A stretch of DNA of 32,000 bases. It comes from Candidatus Electronema halotolerans (GTDB lineage Bacteria > Desulfobacterota > Desulfobulbia > Desulfobulbales > Desulfobulbaceae). How positions within the stretch are numbered: position 1 is the first letter of the stretch; each line of letters opens with the position of its first letter. The stretch spans positions 420,001 to 452,000 of the forward strand of contig OW818675.1 of the NCBI GenBank assembly GCA_942493095.1, given 5' to 3'. Positions 2,980-22,557 of this stretch are shown one piece after another. The position numbers and the translations under genes are program-made. The notes under the pieces are model-generated. The model worked only from the letters and a program-made list of their open reading frames with translations, was not told the DNA's origin and did no database searches.

Positions 2980-3010
2980 GATGTATTTGTTATTGATTTT
3001 AATTCGTTCC

Positions 3011-3038
3011 GTAGGGACGAAAAATTTTTCGTCCCTAC
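3011..3038. repeat. REP-like 28-nt perfect palindrome GTAGGGACGAAAAATTTTTCGTCCCTAC
   Basis: Perfect inverted repeat, intergenic between the pgm start and the LRR gene stop. Member of a 7-copy family in this window. Confidence 0.85.
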
Positions 3039-3077
3039 ATTGTGCCATTGCCAAGGAACAAGGCAAAAAAGACAAAA

Positions 3078-4442
3078 TCACTGTCCGCCGCGCACCAACA
3101 GAACCGCGACGTCGTAGTCGCGGTTGACGACGTCGGAATAGCCGCTGCCGAAATAGACGCACCACGCATAGTCCGAGCTGACCGCATAGGGCGAACCGGA
3201 CCAGTACCACAATGAAGTATTCGGAAAAGCCTGCTGATTGATCGTTGGCTCTTCCGAATCATCGTTGCACCAGCCGTCATCTTTGTCTTTCACCCCTTTA
3301 CTGCAATAGACCAAGGTTTTCAGCTCATCAATGGTCGGCAGCCGCCAATCTGTATAACCAGCATATTCAACATGTTTAAAACGGCTTACGGCATCATCCC
3401 ATTTGCACTCTTCCGCCTTTCCCACTTCACAATTCACCCCTTCCAATCCTTCTGAGCAGCGTTTCCACATCAGGCCAGTCTTCGTATCAATTATAGTTCC
3501 ATCGCAATGATCAATATATTGACCAATCTTTATTCCTTTTGAGCAAGCTATTTTCCACAATCGTTCTTTTTCTCGTGCAGCGATGCCATCCAATTTTTTT
3601 CGCAATCCTTCTGGCAACTTTGACAAGTTATCATAATCAGAGCCGCTGTCATATTGCAGTTTCTTGATGCTTTTCAAAGAAAACATATCACCGTAATCAT
3701 CCGCCAAACGCACCGAGCCATTGCCTTGCAAATCCCAAATTTTCAGCGCATTCATGTCTATGTATGGAATTTCCGTCAGCTCATTGTTGCTCAAATCAAG
3801 TAATTGCAAATTCCGCACCGGCAGCCCTGTTCTGGGAAATGTGCTGATGCCGTTGGCGGATAAATTCAACTCCTCCAAACCGGCCAGCTTGTTCAGCTCC
3901 AATGCGCTGACCTCGTTGTTAATCCGGTTCTTGCTCAAATCAAGAATCTTCAATGACCATAACGGAGCTAAGGAACCGAAATTCTTGGCCGCGCCCTGCG
4001 TCCCGCTCAAATAGAGTTCGCCTAAATCGCTCAATTTCTGCCAAACCGGGGCAAGATTTTGCTCCGCCGTGTCGCCTTGAAAAAGCGGGTTGTCGGAAAG
4101 ATTGAGCACATCCAGCTTGGGCATGGCCTGCAAGGTTTCCAGCAAATCGCTGTCCGCATCCAAATGATTTTTCGACAAATCCAAGCGGCGCAGGTTGGTG
4201 AAGCGTTTCAGCCACGGCGGGATTCTGTACAACGAGGCATCGGAAAAATCAAGCAGCTCCACCCGGAGCAATTCGCGGGGCGCGGTCTCGGCAGGCAGCA
4301 CCTGCGCAGTTCTTTGGCCGGAAAACTGCACCTTGACACCTGCATCGTGCATGATGCGCACGTCATCAATTGTGAATAATTCCTGCCCGACAGACAAGGA
4401 CGGCAGCAGGCATAAGCACAAGGAGAATATGATTTTTTTCAT
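3078..4442 (-). CDS. Secreted leucine-rich-repeat protein with C-terminal DUF1566 (Lcl C-terminal-like) domain
   Basis: Signal peptide [20 protein letters not shown]. Repeated LxxLxLSxNxL units. C-terminus [33 protein letters not shown] matches the DUF1566 pattern. Confidence 0.75.
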
Positions 4443-8529: not shown

Positions 8530-8778
8530 GGTTGAGGAAGAGATGATTGACGTTCCAGCGCGGAACGCTGCGGGGCAGTATATTTTTTTGCCAAGCAAAG
8601 GTCAAGTGAAAGTCTTTGAATATTGAACCGTTGCCCAAAACCTCTCCAGCAGCGGCCTTGCCATCCATCACGTTTCTTGACAGAGCTTGAACGCCAGAGT
8701 AAACGAATTGAAAAATCAATTCGTTTCTTCAAAATAAGGTGAAAATGGGCCGGACAAGGGGAGGTTTCCCAAAATGGC

Positions 8779-8808
8779 TTGACAACTGCCTGATTTTTCT
8801 GGTACGAA
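8779..8808 (+). promoter_or_regulatory. Leader-A sigma70-like promoter (TTGACA-18 nt-TACGAA), copy 1
   Basis: About 95 nt (8722-8818) are near-identical to the leader of array 2 (10944-11038). The -10 element ends 10 nt before the solo repeat. Confidence 0.5.
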
Positions 8809-8818
8809 AAGAGGAAGA

Positions 8819-8853
8819 GTCACAATGACACTCCGGGGCACCTTGGGTTAGAC
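8819..8853 (+). CRISPR. Solo degenerate CRISPR repeat (35 nt)
   Basis: GTCACAATGACACTCCGGGGCACCTTGGGTTAGAC versus the consensus: 2 substitutions and a 1-nt deletion. No second repeat follows. Confidence 0.8.
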
Positions 8854-8868
8854 CGCAGGCCGGAATCC

Positions 8869-8896
8869 GTAGGGGGAATTCATGAATTCCCCCTGC
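8869..8896. repeat. REP-like palindrome GTAGGGGGAATTCATGAATTCCCCCTGC
   Basis: Near-perfect 28-nt palindrome 15 nt after the solo repeat. The flank ggccggaatcc resembles the flank of the copy at 20003. Confidence 0.8.
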
Positions 8897-8931
8897 AATG
8901 TTTGGATATTTCATAAAAATGGCTTTCCGCC

Positions 8932-9768
8932 ATGAACATCCTCCCCTGCTTCCAGCCGCTGCTTGACCTCTCGTGGCAAACCTTGCGTATTGAGCTGCGC
9001 AACACCCGCAACATCTTTGCCCGCCAGCACCCGTTAGCCGTGTTCGCTGCGGTGTGCAAGGAGGCGGCCAGCAAGGCAGGTATTCCGCACCACGAGTATT
9101 TTTATCATCCCTTGTCCGGCCTGCTGGAAAGCCGCATCCGCAAAGATGCTGTCTATCCGCTGGAACTGGTTTTCTCCAGCAACGACAGCACAGTCCGCGA
9201 CCGCTTCCTCAGCGGCCTGACCGAGCACCTGCGTCATCCCCGCAGCAACTTTGCCCTGCATCAGGCAGAGCCATCCATCCGCCGCTGCCTTGCTGATCTG
9301 CTGGCGGAAAATCCCCTGCGCTGCCCGGACGAAGTCTGCTTGGATTTCATCACCCCGTTTCCGTTCACGCCAAAAGCACCGGGGCAGCTCTGCCTGATCG
9401 ACCGCGACCTCTTTTTCCGCAAGCTGGCAGCCCGCATTGAGCGGACGTTCGGCCTGCGGCTGCCGGGCATCGAAAGCACGTGGGCGGAAGTGCGCTTGCT
9501 CTGCTGCTATTGGAAATACTATGAACGTCAGCGGGATTCGGCCAGCAACAGGGGCAGGCTGTATCTGAACGGCACGGTCGGGCCGCTCTATCTGCGCGGC
9601 GAGATTGCGCCGGTCTATCCGCTCCTCCTGCTCTGCTCCGAGATCAGTAACGGAAGGCACAGTGCCTTTGGCTTAGGACATTACCTGCTGCGGCAGGAAC
9701 CCAGCCTGAAAAACCTCCGGCAAAATGGCCGTGAAAGAGGGGCTGGAAGGGGAGGTGCTACAAAATAG
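8932..9768 (+). CDS. cas6: CRISPR-associated endoribonuclease Cas6 (RAMP)
   Basis: 278 aa adjacent to the arrays. C-terminal glycine-rich loop SNGRHSAFGLGHYLL is typical of Cas6. Called from context plus this motif only. Confidence 0.7.
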   Translation: MNILPCFQPLLDLSWQTLRIELRNTRNIFARQHPLAVFAAVCKEAASKAGIPHHEYFYHPLSGLLESRIRKDAVYPLELVFSSNDSTVRDRFLSGLTEHLRHPRSNFALHQAEPSIRRCLADLLAENPLRCPDEVCLDFITPFPFTPKAPGQLCLIDRDLFFRKLAARIERTFGLRLPGIESTWAEVRLLCCYWKYYERQRDSASNRGRLYLNGTVGPLYLRGEIAPVYPLLLLCSEISNGRHSAFGLGHYLLRQEPSLKNLRQNGRERGAGRGGATK

Positions 9769-9770
9769 TA

Positions 9771-9800
9771 TTGACAGGAAGCTGAATTTACGGGTATAAA
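9771..9800 (+). promoter_or_regulatory. Leader-B sigma70-like promoter (TTGACA-18 nt-TATAAA)
   Basis: Near-consensus hexamers. The -10 element ends 10 nt upstream of repeat 1. The same roughly 51-nt leader recurs inverted at 20837-20887. Confidence 0.6.
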
Positions 9801-9810
9801 AAGAGGCAGA

Positions 9811-10119
9811 GTCACAATGACACTCCGGGGCGCCCTGGGTTATGACATACTATATGTGGCAAAGCCACTTTATAAGTCACAATGACACTCCGGGGTGCCC
9901 TGGGTTATGACTGTTATCTTCGGCAATTGATCCTGCAACTGAAAGTCACAATGACACTCCGGGGCGCCCTGGGTTATGACCAGATGCCCCATATAGCAGC
10001 CTTGTTTTTGTGTCACAATGACACTCCGGGGTGCCCTGGGTTATGACAATTGCATCACCAGAAAAACTACGTAGATTTGTAAAGTCACAATGACACTCCG
10101 GGGCGCCCTGGGTTATGAC
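9811..10119 (+). CRISPR. CRISPR array 1: 5 repeats, 4 spacers (29, 33, 31, 36 nt)
   Basis: Repeats at 9811, 9876, 9945, 10012 and 10084, all 36 nt: GTCACAATGACACTCCGGGGYGCCCTGGGTTATGAC. The Y polymorphism lies in the predicted hairpin loop. Confidence 0.95.
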
Positions 10120-10167: not shown

Positions 10168-10381
10168 TGTTGCGCAGTTATACAAGCGATATATCCAGCC
10201 GATATCAGCCGCTGATCAACTTGAGCTGATCGCCTTGATCAGCAGACAATTGATCAACCGGCCTGAACGGCAGCAGCGGAGCCTGCTGGAGTTGGAAGGA
10301 CTTGGGGCCGAAATATGGGAAGGTGTTGACCCGCAGCAATATGTTGATGCGCTGCGGAATGAATGGGAAAACCGCCTGTGA
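10163..10381 (+). CDS. VapB-type antitoxin (small, acidic C-terminus)
   Basis: 72 aa. LELEGLGAEIWEGVDPQQYVDALRNEWE is a pattern common in antitoxins paired with PIN toxins. Overlaps the downstream PIN gene. Confidence 0.6.
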   Translation: MTVAQLYKRYIQPISAADQLELIALISRQLINRPERQQRSLLELEGLGAEIWEGVDPQQYVDALRNEWENRL

Positions 10382-10824
10382 CAAGTCCTGAGTCTGCTTT
10401 CACAAAGATAACAGTGCTGGGAATTGACACGGCTCCGTTTATTTATTTTGTCGAACGGCATCCAGTTTATCTGCCGGTCATCCGGGATATTTTCAGGCGG
10501 ATTGATCAAGGATTCATGCGGGGCTGCGCTTCGGTGATCACGCTGACTGAAGTGCTTGTTCAGCCCAAGCGTTGCGGAAAAATCGCCTTGGAACGAGAAT
10601 ACCGCGATCTCCTGCTGTGCAGCAGAAATTTTGAACTTATCCCGATAGATGCGGCAATTGCCGAGCAGGCGGCGGAACTGCGGAGCCGCCATAACCTGCG
10701 AACGCCTGACGCGCTTCAGATTGCGGCCAGCCTTTCCGGTGGTTGCGAAGCATTTCTGACCAATGACAAGCAGCTCAAGCGCGTTGAGGACTTGGCAGTG
10801 CTGGTGCTGGATGATTTTGTATAA
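10363..10824 (+). CDS. PIN-domain VapC toxin
   Basis: GIDTAPFIYFVE (N-terminal Asp), TLTEVLV, and RTPDALQIAASL..AFLTNDKQL acidic-residue pattern of PIN domains. The start is ATG 10363 or GTG 10378 (GTGA overlap with the antitoxin stop). Confidence 0.7.
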   Translation: MGKPPVTSPESAFTKITVLGIDTAPFIYFVERHPVYLPVIRDIFRRIDQGFMRGCASVITLTEVLVQPKRCGKIALEREYRDLLLCSRNFELIPIDAAIAEQAAELRSRHNLRTPDALQIAASLSGGCEAFLTNDKQLKRVEDLAVLVLDDFV

Positions 10825-10998
10825 CAGACATGGACGAATGATGTCGGCTGCTTAAAAAATATATTATTTCGGACAGGTGCGAGTTATTGAATTATCATGC
10901 TGAATCTGCGTCGTTATTCGACAAAACCAACACAATGTAGTACCTTCGGCAAAATGAGGTGAAAATGGGTCAAACAAGGGGAGGTTTCCAAAAAACGC

Positions 10999-11028
10999 TT
11001 GACAACTATCTGGATTTACTGGTACGAA
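10999..11028 (+). promoter_or_regulatory. Leader-A sigma70-like promoter (TTGACA-18 nt-TACGAA), copy 2
   Basis: Same geometry as 8779-8808. The -10 element ends 10 nt before repeat 1 of array 2. Confidence 0.5.
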
Positions 11029-11038
11029 AAAAGGAAGA

Positions 11039-11212
11039 GTCACAATGACACTCCGGGGTGCCCTGGGTTATGACAATATATGATCACCTATCACATTACC
11101 GTGAGAGTCACAATGACACTCCGGGGTGCCCTGGGTTATGACTTGAGGTTTGCTGACAGTGAAACATTCATGTCTTGTCACAATGACACTCCGGGGTGCC
11201 CTGGGTTATGAC
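11039..11212 (+). CRISPR. CRISPR array 2: 3 repeats, 2 spacers (32, 34 nt)
   Basis: Repeats at 11039, 11107 and 11177, all the T variant of the consensus. Confidence 0.95.
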
Positions 11213-11299: not shown

Positions 11300-12328
11300 A
11301 TGACTCAGCTCCCCTACAGCATCTCTTCACGCACTCCCATCGTCACTGGTGACAACGACCACCGAAACACTGAACTGCAAGCCGCCGGACTGCTCGGCAG
11401 CCTGCGCTATCAATACTGGCTGCTCAAGGCCATGCAGGCGTGGGAGAAAAATCCGCAGCATCCTGTTTATCCGCCGTATTCCGCTGATCTTTCACCCGCA
11501 GGCAGCAAAAATTTCACAGAGGAACTGCGTAAGGCCGGGCCAGTCGTGCAGCTTTTTGGTGCCACGAACTGGAAAAAGATGTTCCGGCTGGAGATTGCCG
11601 AAGCGGTGCAAAGAGAGCAGCAGTCCTGCTCGGCCCGCGCAAATGACCGCATTGCTCCGTGGCAGTGGACGTTCAAACTCATTTTCCGCCACGACAGAAA
11701 CAGCCCGATTTTTAACAAGCTGGCGGACAAGGAAGGCTTCAGCTTGGCAGATGAGCTGCACAGCCTGATGGCTTTTGTGCATCAGTATGGCTGGCTGGGC
11801 GCGGCCCCGCAGAACGGGCTGGGCTGGGTAAAAGTGCAGAGCGAGGAACTTGGAACGGTCATCCTGCCGCAAGAAAATCCGGTCTTTGCGGCAAAGGATA
11901 TTCTGTTGAATAGAAAAGAATCAAAAAGACTGCAAGATACGCTGCGCGACTATTACCGCGACAAGTACAGCAATTTGGCCGCCCCGCATTGGAAACGGGG
12001 ACGATATCTGCACAGCTTAGAGCATCTGGACAAACAGTCTCCGCCAATCGGCTACGAAATCCGCCGCTGGCTGCGGGATCAGATGTTTCCGCCTGACCGA
12101 TATAAAAACAAGCAGGAGGAATATTTCGGCAACCAGAAACATGCCGGTTTTGTTCATGTCACGCATCCCGTTGTTCAGTCGGACGGCGGCTGGTTGCTCA
12201 GATTACGCTTTGCGGCCCGCCCGGATACGACTGGCGACACAACGCGGCTGTATCCCGATCATCTCGATATTGCGCCGCAGTTCTGGCTTGATTACTGCGA
12301 AAAACTTCTGAAAGCGAAAGATGACTAA
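11300..12328 (+). CDS. cmr1: Type III RAMP protein, Cmr1-like (Cas7 group)
   Basis: TPIVTGDND..AGLLGSLRYQYW, LFGATNWKKMFRLEI, and the G-rich loop GWLGAAPQNGLGWV. A second RAMP half has YFGNQKHAGFVHV. First gene in the III-C gene order. Confidence 0.6.
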   Translation: MTQLPYSISSRTPIVTGDNDHRNTELQAAGLLGSLRYQYWLLKAMQAWEKNPQHPVYPPYSADLSPAGSKNFTEELRKAGPVVQLFGATNWKKMFRLEIAEAVQREQQSCSARANDRIAPWQWTFKLIFRHDRNSPIFNKLADKEGFSLADELHSLMAFVHQYGWLGAAPQNGLGWVKVQSEELGTVILPQENPVFAAKDILLNRKESKRLQDTLRDYYRDKYSNLAAPHWKRGRYLHSLEHLDKQSPPIGYEIRRWLRDQMFPPDRYKNKQEEYFGNQKHAGFVHVTHPVVQSDGGWLLRLRFAARPDTTGDTTRLYPDHLDIAPQFWLDYCEKLLKAKDD

Positions 12329-13076
12329 ATTTCAGGCCGCTGCCCAAGACAAGCACCTTTGGCAGCCCGATTACGCCAGCCTGCCGCACAATCTGCCCAG
12401 CCTCCCTGACCCGGAAATCTCCGGCTGCTCCTTCCGCTTCTTCTGCACCTTCACCCTGCAAACTTGCTTCTTCTCAGGCCGCGACCGAGCGGGCGCAGAA
12501 AAAGAGGCTGGCAACGAGCATGATCACACGTTGAACAACCATCTCTGCCGGGACTGGGTTTCTGGTCATCCATTAGCCAAGGCCGGGGCGTGGAAGCGGC
12601 TTTTCCGTTCCTGCTGGCCGAAAGATAATGCCAAAGATATCGAACGTCTTTTCGGGCCGGAACCAAAACATCCCAACGAAGAGGAAAAACTGAGCAAGGC
12701 TGAGTTGAAATTTCATCACGCCGTTTTTCCTCTGAACAGCACCGGCAAAGCTCTGATTGCGCCGCGAGACCAGAAAACCGGCACGGTCAATCACGGCCCG
12801 ATCACCTATGAAGTGGTGAAGGCAGGCAGCCGCTGCGAGGTAGTGATTGATTATCTGCCGCGCCGCGCTTGCAATCCGGCAGCGGCGGAAAAGGTGCTCT
12901 GGAAGCTGTGGCGGGCCGCCTTGGAAGTTAAAACTCAAGGCGCGGCCATTGGCGGCAAGTCCGGCATTTGGGGGCGTGGCCGGTTTTATCTGACTGAAAT
13001 GTCTGTAATGCGCAGCCCTGACATGCCGCGCAGCAAGTCCAACGAGTCAATCAAAGACCGGAGTGCGGCCCGATGA
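12321..13076 (+). CDS. cmr6: Type III RAMP protein, Cmr6-like (Cas7 group)
   Basis: FTLQTCFFSG..GHPLAKAGAWKRLFRS, RLFG, KFHHAVF, and C-terminal IGGKSGIWGRGRF G-rich loop. 8-nt overlap with the upstream gene and ATGA overlap with cas10. Confidence 0.55.
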   Translation: MTKFQAAAQDKHLWQPDYASLPHNLPSLPDPEISGCSFRFFCTFTLQTCFFSGRDRAGAEKEAGNEHDHTLNNHLCRDWVSGHPLAKAGAWKRLFRSCWPKDNAKDIERLFGPEPKHPNEEEKLSKAELKFHHAVFPLNSTGKALIAPRDQKTGTVNHGPITYEVVKAGSRCEVVIDYLPRRACNPAAAEKVLWKLWRAALEVKTQGAAIGGKSGIWGRGRFYLTEMSVMRSPDMPRSKSNESIKDRSAAR

Positions 13077-13459
13077 GCGAAGCCCAAATCAGCGCGGCCT
13101 TGGAGCAGCACTGCCGCTTCCTCGCTTATGTGCGCGTGAATGCGTTGCTGCATGATGGAGACAAGGTCACGTCAGAGTTTCTGCGCTGGTCGATGGATAA
13201 AAAAAGCGTTCCGAAAGAAGAATATCCCGGACATGAAACATCTTCCCCGGAAGAACGGCTGAATTTTCTGGCAAGCAAGGAAGAGCTGTTCCCACGGCAT
13301 GAGCTGGAGCCAATTGCTGCCCCTGTGCGTCGGGTCGCCTTGGAACCTGACATGCTGCGGAAGGAACAGGCTGCCGACATATTGCAGCAATATATCGGGA
13401 ACGAAAATTTTATCAGCAAGTTGGCATCCTCTCAGCTAAAGAATCTGGAAGATAATTTT
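13073..13459 (+). pseudogene. cas10: cas10 (cmr2-like) 5' segment encoding the HD domain, interrupted by an IS
   Basis: HCRFLAYVRVNALLHDGDK resembles the Cas10 N-terminal H...HD motif. The reading frame runs into the IS end at 13460. Confidence 0.7.
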
Positions 13460-14641
13460 GGCGGTCTCCCTCTTGAGAGTTGTTGAATAATTGTTTATCC
13501 TTCTGTGTGTGTCAACTATTTTAAAGAAGGAGGAAAAGATGGCTAAACTTGCAAAAGTCGGCAGTTTTTGTCCGAACCCCGCCTGTTCTGATTATGAGCA
13601 GCTTGACGGTCGAATTATCAGATATGGCCGCACTCGTGCAGGCGTTCAGCGTTTTAAATGCCTGAGTTGCGGAAGAACGTTCACTGCGACGCGAGGGACG
13701 ATATTTTATCGCCGCCGGACGGAGGATGCTGAAATTGTTGAGTGTCTTGCCCTGCTTGCGGAAGGATCACGGATCAGCAGCGTGAGCCGGGTGAAAGGGC
13801 ACAAGGAAGACACAGTCGCCGCTTGGCTGACGGAAGCAGCCGAGCATGTTGAAGCTGTTGAAAATGTTCTTCTTTCCGAATTCCGCATCAGCCGGGGCCA
13901 GCTTGACGGCTTATGGTCTTATGTGAAGAATAAGGGCGAAAAAAAAGGACATGCGGAAACTGAGGCGAGCGGCCAGTTTTTCCGTTCGACGATGATGGAC
14001 ATGGACAGCCGCCTGCGTGCCGGGCGGGGATTCGGCAAATCGGAGACGGAAGCTTCCGCCGCCGTCTTCCGGCAGCTCAAGGAACGCGGGCATTCCGACG
14101 GCCCGCCGCCGACAGTTTCAGACGGCTGGGGCGGCATCCGGGAGGCGATGCTGGAAATTTTTGGAAAAGTTCCTGAATATTCCGGAAAAGGCAGACCTCC
14201 CTCGAAAAAGCGGCCTCAACCCGGATGGAAATATTTGCAAATCATCAAGCAGCGGGATGAGAAGGGGAATTTTCTCGGCACACGGCGCAAGGCGGTGCAT
14301 GGGAGCATGAGAGAACTTGATAAAATCTTTGGAAAAAGCACGGCCTATATTGAACGCAGCCATCTGACCATGCGGACTTTCAGCAGCCGCCTGACGCGGA
14401 AAGGCATCGCCTTCTCAAAGAGCATTGACATGCATAAAGCCGCCGCCGCACTGGAGGATATGTATTACAACTTCATCAAACCGCTGAAAACTTTGAGGCT
14501 GAATGCTGACGAAAACTCCGGGCTGAAATGGCTGCCGCGCACACCGGCAATGGCTGCGGGCTTGACGGACCATATTTGGACGCTGAAAGAGGTCTTCAGC
14601 ATGGTCGTGATTGAAAAACAACACTCAACAGGGTGACGACC
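13460..14641 (+). mobile_element. IS1-family insertion sequence (1182 bp)
   Basis: Imperfect terminal inverted repeats, 20/26 matches (GGCGGTCTCCCTCTTGAGAGTTGTTG versus the reverse complement GGTCGTCACCCTGTTGAGTGTTGTTT). Flanked by a perfect 8-bp direct repeat ATAATTTT at 13452-13459 and 14642-14649. Confidence 0.85.
13539..14636 (+). CDS. IS1-family DDE transposase (single ORF with N-terminal zinc finger)
   Basis: GGAGG RBS 7 nt upstream. CPNPAC..CLSCG zinc finger. LDGLWSYV, SDGWGGI and ERSHLTMRTFSSRLTRKGIAFSK match the IS1 DDE and C-terminal pattern. The stop lies inside the right IR. Confidence 0.75.
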   Translation: MAKLAKVGSFCPNPACSDYEQLDGRIIRYGRTRAGVQRFKCLSCGRTFTATRGTIFYRRRTEDAEIVECLALLAEGSRISSVSRVKGHKEDTVAAWLTEAAEHVEAVENVLLSEFRISRGQLDGLWSYVKNKGEKKGHAETEASGQFFRSTMMDMDSRLRAGRGFGKSETEASAAVFRQLKERGHSDGPPPTVSDGWGGIREAMLEIFGKVPEYSGKGRPPSKKRPQPGWKYLQIIKQRDEKGNFLGTRRKAVHGSMRELDKIFGKSTAYIERSHLTMRTFSSRLTRKGIAFSKSIDMHKAAAALEDMYYNFIKPLKTLRLNADENSGLKWLPRTPAMAAGLTDHIWTLKEVFSMVVIEKQHSTG

Positions 14642-14649
14642 ATAATTTT

Positions 14650-17295
14650 CAGCTCGACAAAAAAGGCCAACAGAAACGTAATTTTTTTGATCAGGACTAC
14701 ACGTCGATTTTTACAGAAGGGCTGTTCAGCAAGCTGACTGGTCAGCCTGTCCCAGCAGGTGTGGACTGGCTCTGTGAATTTCATCCCGGCACCTCTTTGT
14801 ATGATTTTTACGCTTGGCATCACCGGCCTACTTTTCACTTAAAAACGAAGAGTCATGTAGCAACATCCCTGCTTTTTTTCTCTGCCGGAACCGGAGGCAT
14901 TGATGGCAACGACACTGGTTATGAAACCGAAATGGAGGCTGGCCGTGAAAAATATTCCGGGCATCACACTCCTGACACTGCGCAGGACAATATTGTTCTG
15001 ATCAGTACGCCGTTTGGTTTCGAGCGGCCTGTTGATCTTGGCTGTGCTGAGACAGCTTGTCATTTGACAGAAGAAATACAAAATGTTGTTGCAGCTCTGC
15101 GGCAAAACAGCCAGCCCATGCAGGCGGCGGCAGAGCTTGAAAGAAAACTTGAGCAGCCTTTTCGCAACACGGTCATCCGCACCAAAAGACCGATCAATGA
15201 CATAACCCTTGCTGATCATTCCATTTCAACTGCTGCCTTGACAGTTGCCCAAGCAGCAAGGGCAGTGCTTGAAAACATCGCGGCCCCGGATGACACCGCT
15301 TACTGTCTGCCAGTCAGAAGACCGTGCAAAGATAGACCCAGCCAGCAAACTTGCTTTGCCGCCTTCAGTTGCGCAGTCAATGCGGACAAGCTCGACCAGA
15401 TGGCTTTGGAACTCAAAGACATCACCGCCATTCGGGACGAGGTGAACAAGCTGCTCAATTATTTTATCCTCTTGTTTTCTGAGGAATATCCGGTTGGCGG
15501 GAAGGTGTATCAAGATCAGCACGGCGCGCATGTCGTGGTGCCGGTGCTGGGTAATCCAGCCAAACGCTGGATTAAAGGCGGCGCAGACAAGCTGATCAGG
15601 CTTGAGGAGCAGACGCAGCAGCCTGAATGGGCGGACGCGCCGCTGGATGCCCTGACCGATGAGCAGTTTGTCGATTGGCTCTTTGCCACGGCAGAAAGAG
15701 AGTTACAGAAATTTCCGGTTTACTTTGGTGCGGAACTGCTGATCGGTCTGCGTTACAATCCGATTATGCAGCAATTGAACAGGCTGGCCCATGCGATTGA
15801 CTGGAGCCGGGAAATTTCTTGGTTCAGCAGGGCTGCCGGTCGTGCTCTGCGCAAAGGAGAAGGCGGGGGCTGCATTCGATTTTTCAACTATTTGGAAAGA
15901 GAAGTCACGCTCGACAAAAAAGATCAAGCAGAACCTGTTCCAGATTTGTGCGGAGTCTGCGGTCTGCGCATGGGCACTGACCGCAAGCACCGGAAATGCG
16001 ACATCTGCTTCAAACGGACTGATGATCATCGGGTGCTGCTGGAAGAAACCGGCGATATTGAAAAACTGGAACAGGCTTCCGGCGACAACCGGATGGTGCT
16101 GTTAAGCGTTTCTTTCAACCTTGCCGACTGGTTGGCAGAGAAATCCAATTCCGGGATTTTCTGTCACACGGCAAACAAGGCGAATAAGCTGAAGGAGCAG
16201 AAAACTGTCGAGCATCAACGCTTCAACAGCTTTGGCCGTTTCCGGCGTATTTGGCGGAGCACCGAGATTTTTCTGAATGAATTATGCGGCCAGATTCAGG
16301 AAATCAGCGGGCCGGGCGACGAAGACCGTTTCCTGATGCGCACTATCCTGCTTGCCCCGCAGGATTTGCAGATCATCCTGCCTGCGGCCAAAGCCCGCCA
16401 AGCTCTGGATGCGGTGTACGAAAAATTCAGCACGGAATTCGGCAGAGTCAGCGACCGGATGCCCTTTCATGTCTCCCTGTGCATCTTCCCGTTTCGAGTG
16501 CCGATCTACTTGGTGCTGGAAGCGGCCAGACGGCTGCGGCAGAGCTGCCTGAAAATTAAGCCAAAGCAGGTCTGGTTGCACAGAGCTGATCCAGAAGATG
16601 AGCATAGCAATCTGCTGCGCACGGACAGCCGCGCAGACTGCGACGACCGGGAGCGCAGCTTCACCTATTGCCTGCCCATGATCTGGACGCAGAACTATCA
16701 GCCGCCCAACATGCTGAACGGCAAGGATCAGTTTCACGCCAATATCCAAGTGAAGCAGGAAGAAGACGGTAACACGTCCTGGCAGTGGAAATTTGTCGGC
16801 GAGATAGGGCAGGGCGAAAAAAAAGGTGCAAAAGAGACCGTCCTGATGACCGACAACCGCTTGGCCATTGTCGAAATCAGCTCTGGTTTCAGCTTGGATG
16901 AACTGGCCCGGCCTTCGGAAGAGCTGGAGCCGAGCCGCTGCCACGACATCCCGCTCGGCTATTGGCCCTGCATCAAGGAGCTGATCAAGCTGGAATCGCG
17001 CCTGTCTGAAAAGCAGCAGCGCGGGCTGCGTTCCGTCTTGGCCATGCGGGAAAAACTCTGGCAGGAAAGCGACCTGCCCGGCGCAACAGCGGAGGAAAAG
17101 CAGAACTTTCTCCGGCAGAGCATCCGCCTGCTCTGGCAGGAACCTTCCCGCTTCGGGCCGACAAAATGGGGGAATTTGCATGATCACCAAAGAAATCTGC
17201 TGGAGGAAAGCTGTCTGAACGGGGCTGTCTTTCTCGCCTCAGCAGTGAAAAAACATTTGCAGCACAACGACGACAAGGAGCAGGATCATGGCTGA
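14650..17295 (+). pseudogene. cas10: cas10 (cmr2-like) 3' segment: D1/zinc finger/Palm2/D4
   Basis: RPINDITLADHSISTAAL (Cmr2-type), CGVCG-x13-CDIC treble clef, Palm-like strands RMVLLSVSFNLADWL and TILLAPQDLQIILP. In frame with 13073-13459 once the IS and one TSD copy are removed. Confidence 0.75.
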
Positions 17296-18295
17296 AGACC
17301 GGCGGATGCTCAAACTGTTCACCCTTGATCCGCTCCACATCGGCGTGGGCCAAGACATCATGGGCGAGGTTGACCTGCCTGTTGACCGGGAGAGTGAAAC
17401 CGGGGTGCCGCGCATTCCCGGCACGGCCCTGAAAGGCGGCTTCCGCGCTCATGCGGCATGGAAGCTGAAAATGGACGGCAAAAAGGACAAACCCTGTCCC
17501 GGTGATCAGCCGGAAGACGGCAAAACTGCGGCAGAGCGAACCCGTTCTGATTACTGCCCAATTGAATCTTGCCCGATCTGCCAGACCTTCGGTTTTCCAT
17601 CGCTGAACATTCAGGAAAAGCAGATTGCCGGACACGAGGGCCGGGTCTATTTCCGTGATGCCCGGCTGGCCTTTTTTCCAGCTCTGACCGACAAGGGCAC
17701 GCTCTGGTTTTCCACGCCGGGCCGGGCCGCAGCGTGGCTGGAGCTGAAAGGCTATGAACATCCTGAATTGCTTATGGCGGACGGCGACTTGGCCCTGTCA
17801 GTCAATCAGAAAGAGCCAATTCAGGATTTGCGGGTCGGCTGGATTGCTGTTTCCGGGATTGAGCAAAACAGCACGGAAGCGCAGGTGCAGCAGGTTGTTG
17901 AGGCTCTGCGGAACTCCACGCTGCAATTCCCGACTAAGAAATACTGGCAGCATATTGTCAGCAAAACCGTGCTGCTGGATGAAAAGCATTTTTACCGCTT
18001 GGTGGAAACCTGCTTGGAGCGGCGCACCTGCAACCGGGTGGATCAGGACACCGGCACTGTGGCGCAGGGCGCACTGTTCAGCTACGAAGCTCTGCCCCGC
18101 GCCAGTCTGCTGTGCAGCCGGATTTTTGCCGAGACATCGTTGCCCGGCACGATTGAGGGCGGCTATGATTCGCCGCTGGCGGTCTGCAAGCTGGCCAAGG
18201 AAGGCTTTGCCCGCATGGGCATTGGCGGGATGCAGACCAGAGGCTTAGGTTCGCTGCTGATTGAGCTGTCAAGCAGGGAGGTCGGCAATGGCTGA
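17288..18295 (+). CDS. cmr4: Cmr4-like Cas7 backbone RAMP
   Basis: LHIGVGQDIMGEVDLPVDRESETGVPRIPGTALKGGFR, CPICQTFG, RVYFRDA, TGTVAQGALFSYEALP, GIGGMQTRGLG. Confidence 0.8.
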   Translation: MAEDRRMLKLFTLDPLHIGVGQDIMGEVDLPVDRESETGVPRIPGTALKGGFRAHAAWKLKMDGKKDKPCPGDQPEDGKTAAERTRSDYCPIESCPICQTFGFPSLNIQEKQIAGHEGRVYFRDARLAFFPALTDKGTLWFSTPGRAAAWLELKGYEHPELLMADGDLALSVNQKEPIQDLRVGWIAVSGIEQNSTEAQVQQVVEALRNSTLQFPTKKYWQHIVSKTVLLDEKHFYRLVETCLERRTCNRVDQDTGTVAQGALFSYEALPRASLLCSRIFAETSLPGTIEGGYDSPLAVCKLAKEGFARMGIGGMQTRGLGSLLIELSSREVGNG

Positions 18296-18848
18296 ATTTG
18301 CGTATCAGGAACCGGCCCGGATGAAGTTGGGGCGGGAAATATATGACCGCTATTGCAGAGAAAACAAGCAGGGCAATGCCGTCTCTCTGCTCAGTGATGC
18401 CATGACCGTGCTGCGTCAGCTTGGCCCGGCAGGGCTGGATGTCTGGATTGACCTTGATGCAGCCAAACGCGGCTTTCTCCGTCATGCGTGGCAGGAGAAC
18501 GCGCCTGATGAAATGGCCGCCTCGCTCAAAGCGCGGCAAGAGGATGCGGACACGGCTTGGGCGGAGATTGAAGACCTGATGCAGGTGCTGCGCTGCGCCA
18601 AGTATTTACTCAGTGATGCCATGACTGTGCTGCGTCAGCTTGGCCCGGCAGGACTGGATGTCTGGATTGACCTGAAAGGAAAAGACGGTGAACGACAGTT
18701 CATCCGCAACGGGTTGGATGCGAAACTGTCCGACTCGCTCAAGTCACGGCAGCAGGACATGGACACAGCTTGGGCGAAGATTGAAAACCTGATGCAGGTG
18801 CTGCGCTGCGCCAAATATTACGCCAAGACCCAGGAAAAAGATGAGTGA
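18288..18848 (+). CDS. cmr5: Cmr5-like small subunit (Cas11) with internal tandem duplication
   Basis: Position between cmr4 and cmr3 and all-helical composition. The segment LLSDAMTVLRQLGPAGLDVWIDL...AW..IE.LMQVLRCAKY occurs twice (18387-18605 and 18606-18818). Start ATG at 18288 (ATGGCTGA overlap). Confidence 0.6.
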   Translation: MAEFAYQEPARMKLGREIYDRYCRENKQGNAVSLLSDAMTVLRQLGPAGLDVWIDLDAAKRGFLRHAWQENAPDEMAASLKARQEDADTAWAEIEDLMQVLRCAKYLLSDAMTVLRQLGPAGLDVWIDLKGKDGERQFIRNGLDAKLSDSLKSRQQDMDTAWAKIENLMQVLRCAKYYAKTQEKDE

Positions 18849-19683
18849 GCACTGGCAGCAAGTCAGCTTCCGGCTTTCCGGCAGCCTTTTTGTCGGCTCC
18901 GGCAAATGGGGCTTTGTCCTGCCCTGCCGACCCTACTTGCCGGGCTGGACGCTCTGGGGCGCGTTTGTTATCTTGCTGAAGAAAAGCGGACGCTGGTCGG
19001 GCTGTTATGGCGAAATCGGCCAGCGGCTAAATCAGAAATGCTGGCTTGGCCATCTTTTCTTGCAGCAGGAGGACGGCAGCCTGTATTTGCCTGCAATTGA
19101 TCCCAAGCAGGGCGGCAAAACTGTTTTTGACTGGCGCGACCGCAATAACCAAGTTGCTGCCGGGCTGCCGCCCACGCTCTTCCGGCACGGCACGGTGCGC
19201 AGCCGTGAGCAGGGCCAGGAGAGCTTGCACAGACTTTTTCTCACTGAGACTGTGCAGCCCCGGAAGTATCGGTTGACCGGCATTCTCCGCTGCGACAGCC
19301 CGCCGGATGAGCTGCTGCATCCGGGCGACGCGCTCCGGGTCGGCGGCAATCGGCAGGTGAGCGGGGCCGAGATTGTCTGCGAGACCGTGGCAAGCTGCTC
19401 TGAAGAAATGCGGCGGAAATTCCTCAGCTACCAGCACCTGCGCTGCAATCCGGCGGACAATGCCTCTGCCCTGAACGGCGAGCTGGAACGGATTGTCCTG
19501 CGCCGCACCCGGACTGAAAACGGTTCGCGTGCAGACAGCAATGGCCGTTCTGGTTTTGGCCAGCATCACGTTGACTGGGGCCTGCATCTTGCGCCGGGCT
19601 GGGATGGGCCGGAAGGACAGGCGTATCAGCCTGCCAAGGATAAGCAAAACAGTTTCCGGCATGGCACGGTGGAGAAGGTCTGA
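18841..19683 (+). CDS. cmr3: Cmr3-like Cas5-group RAMP
   Basis: YLPGWTLWGAF and LRVGGNRQVSGAE resemble Cmr3 motifs. Last gene in the III-C gene order. 8-nt overlap with cmr5. Confidence 0.5.
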   Translation: MSEHWQQVSFRLSGSLFVGSGKWGFVLPCRPYLPGWTLWGAFVILLKKSGRWSGCYGEIGQRLNQKCWLGHLFLQQEDGSLYLPAIDPKQGGKTVFDWRDRNNQVAAGLPPTLFRHGTVRSREQGQESLHRLFLTETVQPRKYRLTGILRCDSPPDELLHPGDALRVGGNRQVSGAEIVCETVASCSEEMRRKFLSYQHLRCNPADNASALNGELERIVLRRTRTENGSRADSNGRSGFGQHHVDWGLHLAPGWDGPEGQAYQPAKDKQNSFRHGTVEKV

Positions 19684-19880: not shown

Positions 19881-19987
19881 GTCACAATGACACTCCGGGG
19901 TGCCCTGGGTTGCGACAATTATATTTCCATTATCATCATATTCATATTGCCGTCACAATGACACTCCGGGGCGCCCTGGGTTATGAC
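19881..19987 (+). CRISPR. CRISPR array 3: 2 repeats, 1 spacer (35 nt)
   Basis: Repeats at 19881 (3' end GTTGCGAC variant) and 19952 (consensus). Confidence 0.9.
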
Positions 19988-20524: not shown

Positions 20525-20836
20525 GTCATAATAACCCAGGGCGCCCCGGAGTGTCATTGTGACCTTCTAATAATCCAGCTGAAGATTTGGTAAAAAGTCA
20601 TAACCCAGGGCGCCCCGGAGTGTCATTGTGACTATCATGACACGCACAGGAATGTTGTTCGCAGTATGTCATAACCCAGGGCACCCCGGAGTGTCATTGT
20701 GACAGAGATGTCTATCCAGAGCTTCGATTGTTTGTCATAACCCAGGGCGCCCCGGAGTGTCATTGTGACCTTGTAAAAGCCCGGAAGACAAAAAAGTTTT
20801 GTCATAACCCAGGGCGCCCCGGAGTGTCATTGTGAC
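20525..20836 (-). CRISPR. CRISPR array 4 (inverted): 5 repeats, 4 spacers (33, 35, 30, 31 nt)
   Basis: Reverse-complement repeats at 20525 (distal, with a 3-nt ATA insertion), 20597, 20668, 20734 and 20801. The leader-proximal end is on the right. Confidence 0.95.
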
Positions 20837-20846
20837 TCTGCCTCTT

Positions 20847-20876
20847 TTTATACCCGTAAATTCAGCTTCCTGTCAA
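20847..20876 (-). promoter_or_regulatory. Leader-B promoter, inverted copy (TTGACA-18 nt-TATAAA)
   Basis: Reverse complement of 20837-20887 matches 9760-9810 except for one base seen. Confidence 0.6.
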
Positions 20877-21090
20877 TACCATTTTGTAGTTGAACGCAGG
20901 GCTGCTGTCCGGCGAGGGCGTATTCCCCAAAAGCACAAATGCAAAAACAAGCGTTTTTATCTCGCAATAGATTGAAAATGATGCTATTTTCCTCTGACGG
21001 CAGATGCGCCGCCGTTGAATTGTTTGGATAAAAAGACAACATATTAAACAGGATACAGATTTCGTGTCCTGTCGGCAAGGAGAAAACAGC

Positions 21091-22557
21091 ATGGCCCAGA
21101 AAAAAAATAATTCCTTCAGTCTGACTTTGTTCGATATTTACAGGAAAGACCCGGACGGGCCGCTGCCGGAGCCGCCGACTTTTCTCTGGACAGACAGGGA
21201 CGGCGCAAGCTGGCAGATTCCCTTTCTTGAGCCGGATGAAACAGGCGGCAAGGCTGTGCAAAGCGCGCTGCACCGCCTGTACTGCCTTGCCGGACAGGTT
21301 TTCAAGGAAGATCAGGTTTTCAGAACTGCGCCGCAGAAGCTGCTGAACGAGCTGAACACAACATGGCAGGTCGGCCCTGATCTGCTGCCGGTCTGCTTTC
21401 CCCGCGCAGGCGGCTTCTGCTTGGAAAAGGAATACCTGCTCCTGTATCTGGAAGTGCAGCCAGTCATGCCGGAAATCAATGCGGAATGCCTGTCCCGGCT
21501 GGCGGTCATGCTGACCAACAAGCTCTGCTATCGGGAAAAACAGGTCGCAACACTTCAAAGAGAATTCAAAGCGCATCAGGAAGGCAGTCCGGGCCGCAGC
21601 GAACAGGAGATTGTCCAAGCCCATTTTCAGGGCAATGATGCCAAGCTGATCAAGGGCATCACCGGTGAAGCGATCACGGTCAGGGAAATCTTTGCCGACT
21701 TGGCCGGGCCGGGCTGGGAATCCATGCTTCTTGACCGCTTCCTCCTCAAATCCCTGCTCATCACCCCATCAGAAGATGCGGCCCCTTCATACAGCCGTGC
21801 TGATGAGGAAAACCTGCTGCGGCTGACCAGAGGCATGAATGAGAACTATCTGCCCGCGTCGCTGGAGGCTTTGGCCGGGCATGTCGTGCCAGTGCAGACC
21901 TTTGCCAATGTCCGCTTCTTCGCTGCCAACGAAGGGATTGCCGCGCATGTCAAGCCAGGGCCGGGGCCGGGACAGGATTTTCTTTGCACAGAGTTTTCCA
22001 GCCGAACGCATTCCGAATACATGCTCCTCTTTGTGCTGGCCGTGTATCAGCATTACCGGCTGATTGATCTGATCCGGGAGCTGGCTCGCTGCACAGCAGA
22101 CCTGAACGAGCATAGTTTGGACAGCCGCCGGATTGAACAGCTCCGCCAGCTTCGGCAGAAATTGGCTGTTCATGAGGTGAAATACATCAACACCCAGCCC
22201 GCCTTTCTGACCAATTATCAGCAATATTACAGCGGCCTGCGCCAAGGGCTGAATACCGGCGCACTGGCGGAAAAGCTGCGCCGCTCTGTGGCTGAATTAG
22301 ACGCGCTCTTGGCTGCCGAAGAAATGCGCCGGGCCGAGGAGGACCTTCGGGACCGGAAAGAGCAGAAAGAACGGGATGAAAAGGGCAAAATGCTCATGGC
22401 TGTCACCGCAGAGGCAGTGGCTCTGCCTTATTATCTGCACAGTCTGTTGGCCCATGCTCTGCATTTCAACAATTATGTGGCATTGGCCATAACAGGCATT
22501 GTCACCGTCGGCGTGGTGACAAAAACTGTGCTCACCATGCGCGGCAAAAAGTCCTGA
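21091..22557 (+). CDS. Hypothetical protein, 488 aa, coiled-coil plus C-terminal TM hairpin
   Basis: AAGGAG RBS 8 nt before the ATG at 21091. No family recognised by eye. Charged helix AEEMRRAEEDLRDRKEQKERDEKGK is followed by two hydrophobic segments and a basic tail (MRGKKS). Confidence 0.6.
   Translation: MAQKKNNSFSLTLFDIYRKDPDGPLPEPPTFLWTDRDGASWQIPFLEPDETGGKAVQSALHRLYCLAGQVFKEDQVFRTAPQKLLNELNTTWQVGPDLLPVCFPRAGGFCLEKEYLLLYLEVQPVMPEINAECLSRLAVMLTNKLCYREKQVATLQREFKAHQEGSPGRSEQEIVQAHFQGNDAKLIKGITGEAITVREIFADLAGPGWESMLLDRFLLKSLLITPSEDAAPSYSRADEENLLRLTRGMNENYLPASLEALAGHVVPVQTFANVRFFAANEGIAAHVKPGPGPGQDFLCTEFSSRTHSEYMLLFVLAVYQHYRLIDLIRELARCTADLNEHSLDSRRIEQLRQLRQKLAVHEVKYINTQPAFLTNYQQYYSGLRQGLNTGALAEKLRRSVAELDALLAAEEMRRAEEDLRDRKEQKERDEKGKMLMAVTAEAVALPYYLHSLLAHALHFNNYVALAITGIVTVGVVTKTVLTMRGKKS

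Follow-up and report, generated by a model that had tools for sequence, protein, structure and literature searches.

An IS1-family insertion sequence within cas10 (csx11) of a type III-C CRISPR locus in Candidatus Electronema halotolerans

In Ca. Electronema halotolerans, a multicopy IS1-family element has very probably transposed into cas10 (csx11) of a type III-C operon. Within the window, the 32-kb stretch of DNA that was analysed here, the element lies between two parts of a single reading frame (Table 1). By simple transposition, staggered cuts at the AT-rich 8-bp target ATAATTTT, followed by fill-in, generated the perfect duplication that flanks it. The insertion truncates Cas10 after residue 129, in a variable linker of the predicted HD domain, and full-length Cas10 would no longer be made; cas10 has almost certainly been switched off.

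Table 1. Features of the interrupted cas10 gene, the inserted element and the surrounding CRISPR locus (window coordinates)
Feature	Position	Strand	Remarks
cas6	8932..9768	+	
CRISPR mini-array	9811..10119	+	5 repeats of GTCACAATGACACTCCGGGGCGCCCTGGGTTATGAC
CRISPR mini-array	11039..11212	+	3 repeats
cmr1-like RAMP (Cas7 group)	11300..12328	+	
cmr6-like RAMP	12321..13076	+	stop overlaps cas10 start
cas10 (csx11, type III-C) 5' part	13073..13459	+	codons 1-129; carries HDxxK
Left copy of target-site duplication	13452..13459	.	8 bp, ATAATTTT
IS1-family insertion sequence	13460..14641	+	1182 bp
Left terminal inverted repeat	13460..13485	.	26 nt
Transposase ORF	13539..14636	+	365 aa; ATG start, AAGGAGG 6 nt upstream
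A8 homopolymer inside transposase gene	13939..13946	+	A9 in five other copies
Right terminal inverted repeat	14616..14641	.	26 nt
Right copy of target-site duplication	14642..14649	.	8 bp, ATAATTTT
cas10 3' part	14650..17295	+	codons 130-1010; H186, D214-G-x-D217, both palm domains, four Cys
cmr4 (Cas7 backbone RNase subunit)	17288..18295	+	
Small-subunit (cas11/cmr5) candidate	18261..18848	+	position and size only
cmr3 (Cas5 group)	18841..19683	+	
CRISPR mini-array	19881..19987	+	2 repeats
CRISPR mini-array, inverted orientation	20528..20836	-	5 repeats

The 1182-bp element and its imperfect inverted repeats, described in the initial annotation of this DNA, were recovered on recomputation. 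The repeats, GGCGGTCTCCCTCTTGAGAGTTGTTG and GGTCGTCACCCTGTTGAGTGTTGTTT, match at 20 of 26 positions (chance of at least 20 matches with p=0.25, 4e-8) and open with GGCGGTC and GGTCGTC, i.e. with a GG start. The perfect 8-bp direct repeat reported with them is also present, adjoining the true ends of the element on both sides. A perfect repeat of this length at fixed positions has a chance of 1.5e-5, and the octamer occurs only twice in the window on both strands (approximately 0.35 occurrences expected by composition). The ends, 13460 and 14641, are matched by independent copies of the element. Five copies from unrelated metagenomes (JGI and Logan), 98-99% identical and with differing flanks, lose similarity exactly at these positions; three of these (L007-L009) cover both ends and two (L010 and L011) the right end only. 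The single copy found in a scan of GTDB species representatives (L006, from Ca. Electronema sp. KV) likewise begins at 13460; it is degenerate, 87% identical and lies where a contig ends. At least four transposase genes of the same 3.2-Mb genome group in one 90% cluster, and short-read contigs stop 30 nt inside the element, both of which indicate that it is multicopy.

The transposase ORF is identical to CAK8712730.1 of Ca. Electronema halotolerans; an exact-sequence look-up returned no recorded entry for the window transposase, P0020 or P0142. Its ATG is preceded by a strong Shine-Dalgarno sequence. Its N-terminus contains a CxxC...CxxC zinc finger, and D156, D195 and E272, which are conserved across relatives, are candidate catalytic residues. 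Pfam PF03400 (DDE_Tnp_IS1) matches the protein with 28.0 bits (cut-off 24.1) and NF050000, the zinc domain of IS1/IS1595, with 37.2 bits (cut-off 28). The IS1 family profile NF033558 aligns with residues 25-136 (E=3e-15), but its score of 56.6 bits misses the equivalog cut-off of 100 bits. The element is accordingly a distant member of the IS1 family, or a subgroup of it, and is not closely related to IS1. In tblastn comparisons, genes that carry an IS1 or IS1 family transposase annotation align with the transposase along 80-98% of its length, at only about 25-28% identity. Membership of the IS1 family, as initially annotated, is supported by the combined presence of the DDE_Tnp_IS1 domain, the zinc-binding domain, the GG-starting repeats and the 8-bp duplication.

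The transposase had further been described as intact and encoded by a single ORF. The zinc finger and the candidate D, D and E residues are present, but the intact single-ORF state hinges on the A8 run within the gene. All five other copies have A9 at this position and therefore contain two ORFs each, orfA (141 aa) and orfB (214 aa), with orfB in the +1 frame. Since the genome stems from a metagenome assembled from Nanopore R9.4.1 reads, the A8 run may be an assembly error, or homopolymer under-call, in the window copy. In addition, the element has 12 internal positions at which short-read contigs and the window disagree, which makes the internal sequence of this copy uncertain, including A8 versus A9. 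The run is likely to be either a slippage site or an under-call in the assembly. IS1-type -1 frameshifting on an A6C motif is absent, the window copy having one ORF and the others a +1 orfB after A9. Conservation of A9 together with the +1 position of orfB points to transcriptional slippage and not to the classical -1 frameshift. This IS1-related lineage thus seems to keep an A9 run with a +1 orfB, a modest but testable observation.

Excision in silico restores one ORF, as initially proposed. When 13073-13459 and 14650-17295 are joined, the resulting 3033 nt comprise 1010 codons and a stop codon, without internal stops. As it stands, the 5' ORF runs 8 codons into the element and ends at a stop at 13486, and the 3' open frame extends back to a TTG at 14611. 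The joined protein is colinear with an intact 1020-aa orthologue (P0001), with 67% identity and no relative gap at the junction (...SSQLKNLEDNF/QLDKKGQQKRNFFDQDY... in the window and ...GSSLKDLQKYF/YLDKKGKIHKDFFKQNY... in the orthologue). Of the columns that are otherwise invariant in the family, it deviates in one, through the conservative substitution L205F, and the number of such deviations is no greater than in intact orthologues; the reported absence of other lesions in both halves is in keeping with this.

Identification of the target as cas10 is upheld by both profiles and fold. The PADLOC profile PDLC01314 (Cas10c) matches the joined protein with E=2e-48. TIGR02682 (Csx11) does so with E=1.8e-34 and 119 bits, below its curated cut-off of 249, and matches 15/15 family members. 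Pfam gave no significant match for either half or for the joined protein, and a PDB sequence search with the family profile gave no match. An AlphaFold model of the restored protein based on 80 sequences reached pLDDT 89.5 and pTM 0.91 (an earlier 15-sequence model, with pLDDT 52.8, was discarded). Its best 50 PDB matches in Foldseek are all Csm1, Cmr2 or Cas10 chains or type III effector complexes, the lowest E-value being 6e-10 and the target TM-scores ranging from 0.35 to 0.51. A putative four-cysteine zinc site (C563, C566, C579 and C582) is invariant in the 80 sequences. GGDD is missing from the palm domains (LLAPQD); LLAPQDLQIILP fills that position in 15/15 family members, an assignment that we take from familiar Cas10 motifs and not from alignment to an active cyclase. 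The family is sharply separate, with about 12 close representatives found and the next relatives approximately 20% identical. On the evidence of sequence and predicted fold, the restored protein is identified as the Cas10 of subtype III-C (Csx11).

In the initial annotation, the element separates the HD domain from the remainder of Cas10; this placement is not supported. In the model, residues 129/130 fall inside an all-alpha N-terminal domain predicted to run to approximately residue 225, the position of the only low-confidence linker. The HDxxK residues H27, D28 and K31 are encoded upstream of the element, and H186, D214, G215 and D217 downstream; both groups are conserved, including in relatives of about 20% identity, and H27, D28, K31, H186, D214 and G215 are invariant there as well as in close relatives. 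The break coincides with the end of a helix in a variable linker that is missing from 8/15 family members, the HD domain of this III-C Cas10 having a long variable insert. The insertion is thus inside the HD domain, with conserved residues on both sides, and parts HDxxK from the remaining conserved H and D residues of the predicted HD nuclease.

The operon has the order cmr1-cmr6-cas10-cmr4-cas11-cmr3, and PADLOC and NCBIfam profiles match Cmr1, Cmr6, Cmr4, Cmr3 and Cas6. Both this order (cmr1-cmr6-cas10-cmr4-cmr5-cmr3) and a Cas10 with an HD motif and without GGDD are shared with type III-C of the Makarova classification (surveyed in PMC11229360). III-C systems possess neither cyclase sites nor known effectors, and an HD domain is present in about half of them (PMC11229360). 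No CARF or other ancillary effector was recognised in the window. The present locus differs from typical type III-C in belonging to a sharply separate clade, in the long HD insert, in an in-frame internal duplication in the cas11 candidate, in an array broken into mini-arrays and in the interruption of cas10. No RNA family was found above threshold by Rfam in the window. The locus looks reduced, with no cas1/cas2, four tiny arrays only and a cas6 remnant; a related locus in Ca. Electrothrix aestuarii is fuller, cas2 being accompanied there by a Cas6-RT-Cas1 fusion and by arrays with 4, 7 and 18 repeats. The insertion fits such a reduced-looking CRISPR locus.

Cas10 and Cmr3 are the nucleators of the effector complex. 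With the III-C cyclase site already dead, the HD nuclease would be the sole output of Cas10. Because Cas10 nucleates the complex and the HD nuclease would be its only output, interference by this locus has most likely been abolished. In addition, polarity would probably reduce transcription of the downstream cmr4, cas11 and cmr3. Since both halves of cas10 are free of decay, the event appears to be fairly young. The earlier description of it as recent is plausible on this ground, but the perfect 8-bp duplication alone is weak evidence of age.

The knock-out may have been selected and not neutral, the insertion rising to fixation, if the III-C effector did harm via a self-targeting spacer, through its cost or by blocking useful mobile DNA; this is improbable. 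The pattern is known from IS-trapping experiments, and self-targeting stress enriches IS insertions in cas genes, with 163 natural cases on record (PMC10359306). The insertion also appears to be fixed in both short-read assemblies, in which contigs show no branch at the target-site duplication, and the cas10 halves are otherwise intact. Set against this, the 11 local spacers gave no match to the window or to any of the retrieved loci, so that the suggestion of autoimmunity made in the initial annotation finds no support in the window. The target site has a GC content of 33%, which ranks at the 1.6th percentile among the 30-nt windows of cas10, and the right flanks of other copies are likewise A/T-rich. 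As IS1 favours AT-rich targets of 8-9 bp (PMC10359306), insertion at one of the most AT-rich spots of the gene is explained by target preference alone, and no special selection is needed. Moreover, genomes of cable bacteria are IS-rich, and hits in non-essential genes are therefore expected (PMC10030654).

Residual function of the interrupted gene was also considered, an HD-less Cas10 having been proposed earlier. A protein lacking residues 1-129 could be translated from TTG 14611 on transposase read-through, or the two fragments could reassemble; either is very unlikely. The resulting complex, in which the 3' part, alone or with the 129-residue N-terminal fragment, might assemble with Cmr3/4/6, would bind crRNA and cut RNA via Cmr4 without HD nuclease activity, an outcome with very little probability. 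If it did occur, the element would turn the system into an HD-less, RNA-only mode, a change that precise excision would undo on rare occasions. No stop interrupts the frame from 14611 onwards, the transposase gene and cas10 are co-oriented, and the split falls at the helix end, in the linker that many family members lack. Since the native cas genes of the operon also have weak Shine-Dalgarno sequences, a weak ribosome-binding site does not itself argue against translation from this TTG. TTG, however, is a rare start codon; the one in question, initially placed within the right inverted repeat, lies 3 nt outside it. A sigma-70-like site (TTGAGA-17-TATCCT, 13473-13501) overlaps the left inverted repeat, but no promoter-like site facing outward was found at the right end; a terminator-like hairpin occupies 14132-14153 inside the element. 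The product would hold half of the HD domain; this orphan half of a compact all-alpha domain would be likely to misfold, and the break divides the conserved active-site residues between the two fragments.

A reversible off-switch, also suggested in the initial annotation, is speculative and more improbable still. In this reading, part of the population would regain cas10 by precise excision at the 8-bp direct repeats, and immunity would be phase-variable. Precise deletion at the perfect duplication would give back the exact ORF. Precise excision of IS1, however, is a rare and unregulated event of replication slippage. The initial annotation had proposed a search for an uninterrupted allele or empty site, and none was found. 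Neither an empty-site contig nor a branch at the duplication is present in the two short-read assemblies, and a homologue search with the joined protein gave no near-identical uninterrupted cas10, the closest being 67-71% identical. A scan of JGI metagenomes with the N-terminal 281 residues gave a single locus, with 54% identity, and no uninterrupted allele. The ancestral state is accordingly reconstructed and not observed.

Misplacement of a repeated element into cas10 by the long-read assembler, conceivable for a multicopy IS in a Nanopore R9.4.1 metagenome assembly with 12 internal disagreements with short-read contigs, is scarcely credible, as a perfect duplication and exact restoration of the ORF are marks of real transposition and both junctions are present in independent short-read contigs, which already contradicts this reading. 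The short-read contigs end 30 nt inside the element; two (L001 and L002) extend from within it over the right junction and two (L003 and L004) over the left junction. Outside the element all four are without substitutions relative to the window. They may come from the assembly's own sample; being 100% identical outside the element, they validate the assembly and do not represent independent populations. Transposition into cas10 thus remains the preferred explanation.

For annotation, this means that the two Ca. Electronema halotolerans cas10 fragments represent one disrupted III-C large-subunit gene, and that the system should be scored inactive. The genome paper for Ca. Electronema halotolerans does not mention CRISPR.

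The element shares several features with IS1 of E. coli: an N-terminus with zinc finger and helix-turn-helix, a C-terminal DDE domain that includes the IER...R(K)...FSK motif region recognised by PF03400, GG-starting inverted repeats, an 8-bp duplication, a preference for AT-rich targets and a run of A's separating the two parts of the transposase gene. It is larger (1182 bp compared with 768 bp), with one fused ORF in the window copy and orfB at +1 after A9 in the two-ORF copies. Classical IS1 has its orfB in the -1 frame, following A6C. A nine-A run between orfA and orfB, where fusion requires an altered transcript length, is also found in IS1447, the transposase of which is produced via transcriptional slippage on A9 (PMC6211511). 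IS1447, however, belongs to the IS3 family, and for the present element slippage is a prediction.

Natural IS insertions that inactivate cas genes have been described by Sheng et al. (Nat Commun 2023; PMC10359306), the main text of which does not mention cas10 or type III. As in those cases, an intact IS with a target-site duplication, here an IS1-type element at an AT-rich 8-bp target, lies inside a cas effector gene of which the ORF can be restored in silico. The present case differs in concerning an uncultured cable bacterium, a type III-C cas10 and a distant relative of IS1, and in that loss of immunity is deduced from the disrupted gene. It adds one further natural IS knock-out of an effector gene, here of type III-C. 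Insertion of IS elements into cas genes has ample precedent; the event is real but ordinary, and leaves current understanding unchanged.

The cas10 gene of the window is interrupted by an insertion sequence (IS) bounded by two copies of the 8-mer ATAATTTT, which occurs at these two places only in a search of both strands of the window; composition predicts about 0.35 occurrences. The terminal inverted repeats match at 20 of 26 positions (chance probability 4e-8), and a sigma-70-type promoter-like site overlaps the left one. Joining 13073-13459 to 14650-17295 yields an ORF of 3033 nt (1010 codons) that no stop interrupts. Five other copies of the IS (L007-L011; 98–99 % identical) are found with different flanks in unrelated JGI and Logan metagenomes. 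Their similarity to the window ends exactly at 13460 and 14641, both ends being covered by L007-L009, and an 87 % identical copy in Candidatus Electronema sp. KV likewise starts at 13460. The element ends are thus not dependent on the reader's choice, and the initial annotation was correct that cas10 is bisected by an IS and that the perfect 8-bp repeat adjoins its true ends.

Coordinates of the insertion and of neighbouring features in the window
Feature	Position	Size	Remark
IS element	13460-14641	1182 bp	Between two copies of ATAATTTT
Copies of ATAATTTT	13452-13459; 14642-14649	8 bp	
Transposase ORF	13539-14636	365 aa	AAGGAGG 6 nt before ATG
Degenerate solo CRISPR repeat	8819-8854		
Leader-like sequences	8725-8850; 9717-9842; 10945-11070	126 nt	TTGACA box
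PIN-domain (VapC-like) gene	10363-10824		Pfam E=4e-17
Internal tandem duplication in putative cas11	18390-18606; 18609-18819	~215 bp	In frame
Decayed repeat-hairpin-cas6-start segment	19975-20257		77–84 % identical to 8841-9002; in-frame TAG
Inverted leader and array unit	near 20799-20889		Arms 99 % complementary over 90 nt
Gene beside arrays	21064-22557	497 aa	C-terminal hydrophobic helices

Both junctions between the IS and cas10 are real. Contigs of short-read runs ERR9669565 and ERR9670067 encode Cmr4 and Cmr6 proteins identical to those of the window. Two of them (L001 and L002) start within the IS, at window positions 14195 and 14469, and cross the right junction into cas10, while two (L003 and L004) span the left junction and end 30 nt inside the IS, an expected break point in a repeat. 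Outside the IS, the four contigs show zero substitutions relative to the window; single-base homopolymer deletions there number three in L001 and none in L002. The contigs probably represent the same population as the assembly, and so validate it rather than representing independent strains. None of the four branches at the duplication, which suggests that these samples contain the empty site rarely or not at all. At 12 positions (14366-14567), all inside the IS, L001 and L002 depart from the window, mostly in agreement with the other copies. The internal sequence of the window copy is, on this comparison, not secure: polishing may have introduced errors into the assembly's copy, or the contigs may be chimeras formed inside the repeat.

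The transposase passes the Pfam DDE_Tnp_IS1 model (28.0 bits; cut-off 24.1) and an IS1/IS1595 zinc-domain model, and aligns with the NCBIfam IS1 model below its cut-off (56.6 bits against 100). In tblastn searches it matches plasmid genes annotated as IS1 or IS1 family transposase at ~25–28 % identity over 80–98 % of the length, and D156, D195 (SDGW) and E272 (IER) are kept among relatives. Because of this combination the element is, judged by its sequence, a distant member of the IS1 family. The closed 3.2-Mb genome of Candidatus Electronema halotolerans encodes an identical protein, CAK8712730.1 (GCAAIG_02045), and at least three further genes of that genome (two of 361 aa, one of 214 aa) fall within its 90 % cluster.

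The transposase had been described as an intact single ORF. This holds for the window but hinges on a run of eight adenines (A8, 13939-13946), which is A9 in five of five other copies. The A9 version encodes orfA (141 aa) and, in the +1 frame, orfB (214 aa); the two frames overlap in a stretch of only ~12 codons, and the run sits inside it. Relatives at 70–75 % identity (P0030, P0033) begin ...IKAKKKG, as expected for A9 read in the frame of orfB, so that the run resembles a recoding site kept by conservation. To fuse orfA and orfB, the transcript would have to lose a single A. In IS1447, transcriptional slippage is driven by an A9 run (PMC6211511). The +1 frame of orfB differs from the -1 frameshift of classical IS1. 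The state of the run suggests either that transcriptional slippage occurs or that the window contains a Nanopore homopolymer error; the assembly combines Flye, Racon and Medaka on Nanopore R9.4.1 reads with one Illumina Racon round (PMC10030654). The A8 would thus be either a genuine fused allele or an R9.4.1 homopolymer under-call inside a repeat. Of the side findings, the putative A9 recoding site in this IS1-related lineage is the one of greatest interest.

The gene split by the IS is a type III-C cas10. The PADLOC Cas10c profile recognises both its 3' part (codons 130-1010) and the joined protein (E=2e-48), and the joined protein and 14 of 14 homologues match TIGR02682 Csx11 (best E=6e-42), under the curated cut-off. 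An 80-sequence alignment yielded a confident AlphaFold model (pLDDT 89.5, pTM 0.91), and each of its best 50 PDB matches is a Csm1/Cmr2/Cas10 chain or a type III effector complex. Profiles identify the neighbours as Cmr1, Cmr6, Cmr4, Cmr3 and Cas6, and the window holds 16 copies of a 36-nt CRISPR repeat. Every family member carries LLAPQD at the position of the cyclase GGDD, and four Cys are invariant. These predicted features match those reported for III-C, which lacks a cyclase site and known effectors and of which roughly half of the systems carry an HD domain (PMC11229360). In the family alignment (A1) this Cas10 family forms a sharply isolated clade, with ~12 representatives above 190 bits and next relatives at ~20 % identity; two N-terminal forms occur, the HD domain being with or without a ~90-residue insert.

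As proposed, the joined protein is colinear with intact Cas10 across the junction; it aligns with P0001, an intact 1020-aa orthologue, at 67 % identity and 100 % coverage, with no relative gap there. The IS had been placed between the HD domain and the rest of Cas10, a position that the model contradicts. A confident all-alpha N-terminal domain runs to the sole low-confidence linker, at about residue 225, and the first palm strands begin at residue 244, whereas the IS follows residue 129, the end of helix 123-129. H27, D28 and K31 upstream of the IS, and H186, D214 and G215 downstream, are invariant even with the ~20 %-identical relatives aligned; D217, also downstream, is conserved in 93 % of that alignment. 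The stretch between the two sets varies in length, ~90 residues being missing from 8 of 15 close homologues. The IS thus splits the HD domain in two, within a variable linker. Since these residues follow the HD-superfamily pattern, both sets would form one active site.

The encoded Cas10 reading frame stops 8 codons into the IS, and Cas10 function has very probably been lost; that it persists in part, or can be regained, is unlikely. The 3' frame is indeed open from TTG 14611, although this codon lies 3 nt outside the right inverted repeat rather than inside it as first described; against its use, no outward-facing promoter-like site was seen at the right IS end, and the IS contains a terminator-like hairpin. 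The weak ribosome-binding site of TTG 14611 does not discriminate, as native cas genes have weak sites too.

The surrounding locus, in a genome whose paper does not mention CRISPR in its main text (PMC10030654), contains four CRISPR mini-arrays of 5, 3, 2 and 5 repeats and a solo repeat. Leader-like sequences precede three units, and one leader and array unit is present as an inverted copy. The decayed second copy of the cas6 start looks like a remnant of an old duplication or rearrangement. The putative small subunit, cas11, is 195 aa against 117–129 aa in relatives, its duplication being present also in L001. The PIN-domain gene lies between two mini-arrays, with space upstream for a small partner gene. 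The 497-aa protein has a weak CorA-like PADLOC match (E=0.0023) and none in Pfam; were it a type III ancillary protein, its place next to a Cas10 with a dead cyclase site would be unusual. In Candidatus Electrothrix sp. (L005), whose orthologous locus is the closest intact one, an additional gene (303 aa, matching no family) lies between cmr6 and cas10 (2914-3825). The homologous III-C locus of Candidatus Electrothrix aestuarii (L013 2628-5573, CP159373.1) has cas2 and an 878-aa Cas6-RT-Cas1 fusion next to arrays whose 4, 7 and 18 repeats belong to the repeat family of the window. Adaptation genes are absent from the window, and its locus looks reduced by comparison.

Inactivation of an autoimmune effector had been suggested, but a comparison of the 11 spacers with the window and with the loci retrieved gave no match. 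By GC content the target ranks at the 1.6th percentile of cas10, and the right flanks of other copies are A/T-rich too. This fits the known preference of IS1 for AT-rich targets (PMC10359306), and a selective explanation is therefore not required. L205F is the only departure of the joined protein from columns that are otherwise invariant in the family, a level seen in intact orthologues too; this indicates that the insertion is young relative to gene decay. The event had been called recent; the low decay of cas10 agrees with this, but a perfect 8-bp duplication alone gives little information on age. IS insertions in cas genes are already documented, one survey counting 163 natural cases (20 IS families, 57 genera), and IS1 is prominent in experiments (PMC10359306); the present case is new in host and subtype, not in kind.
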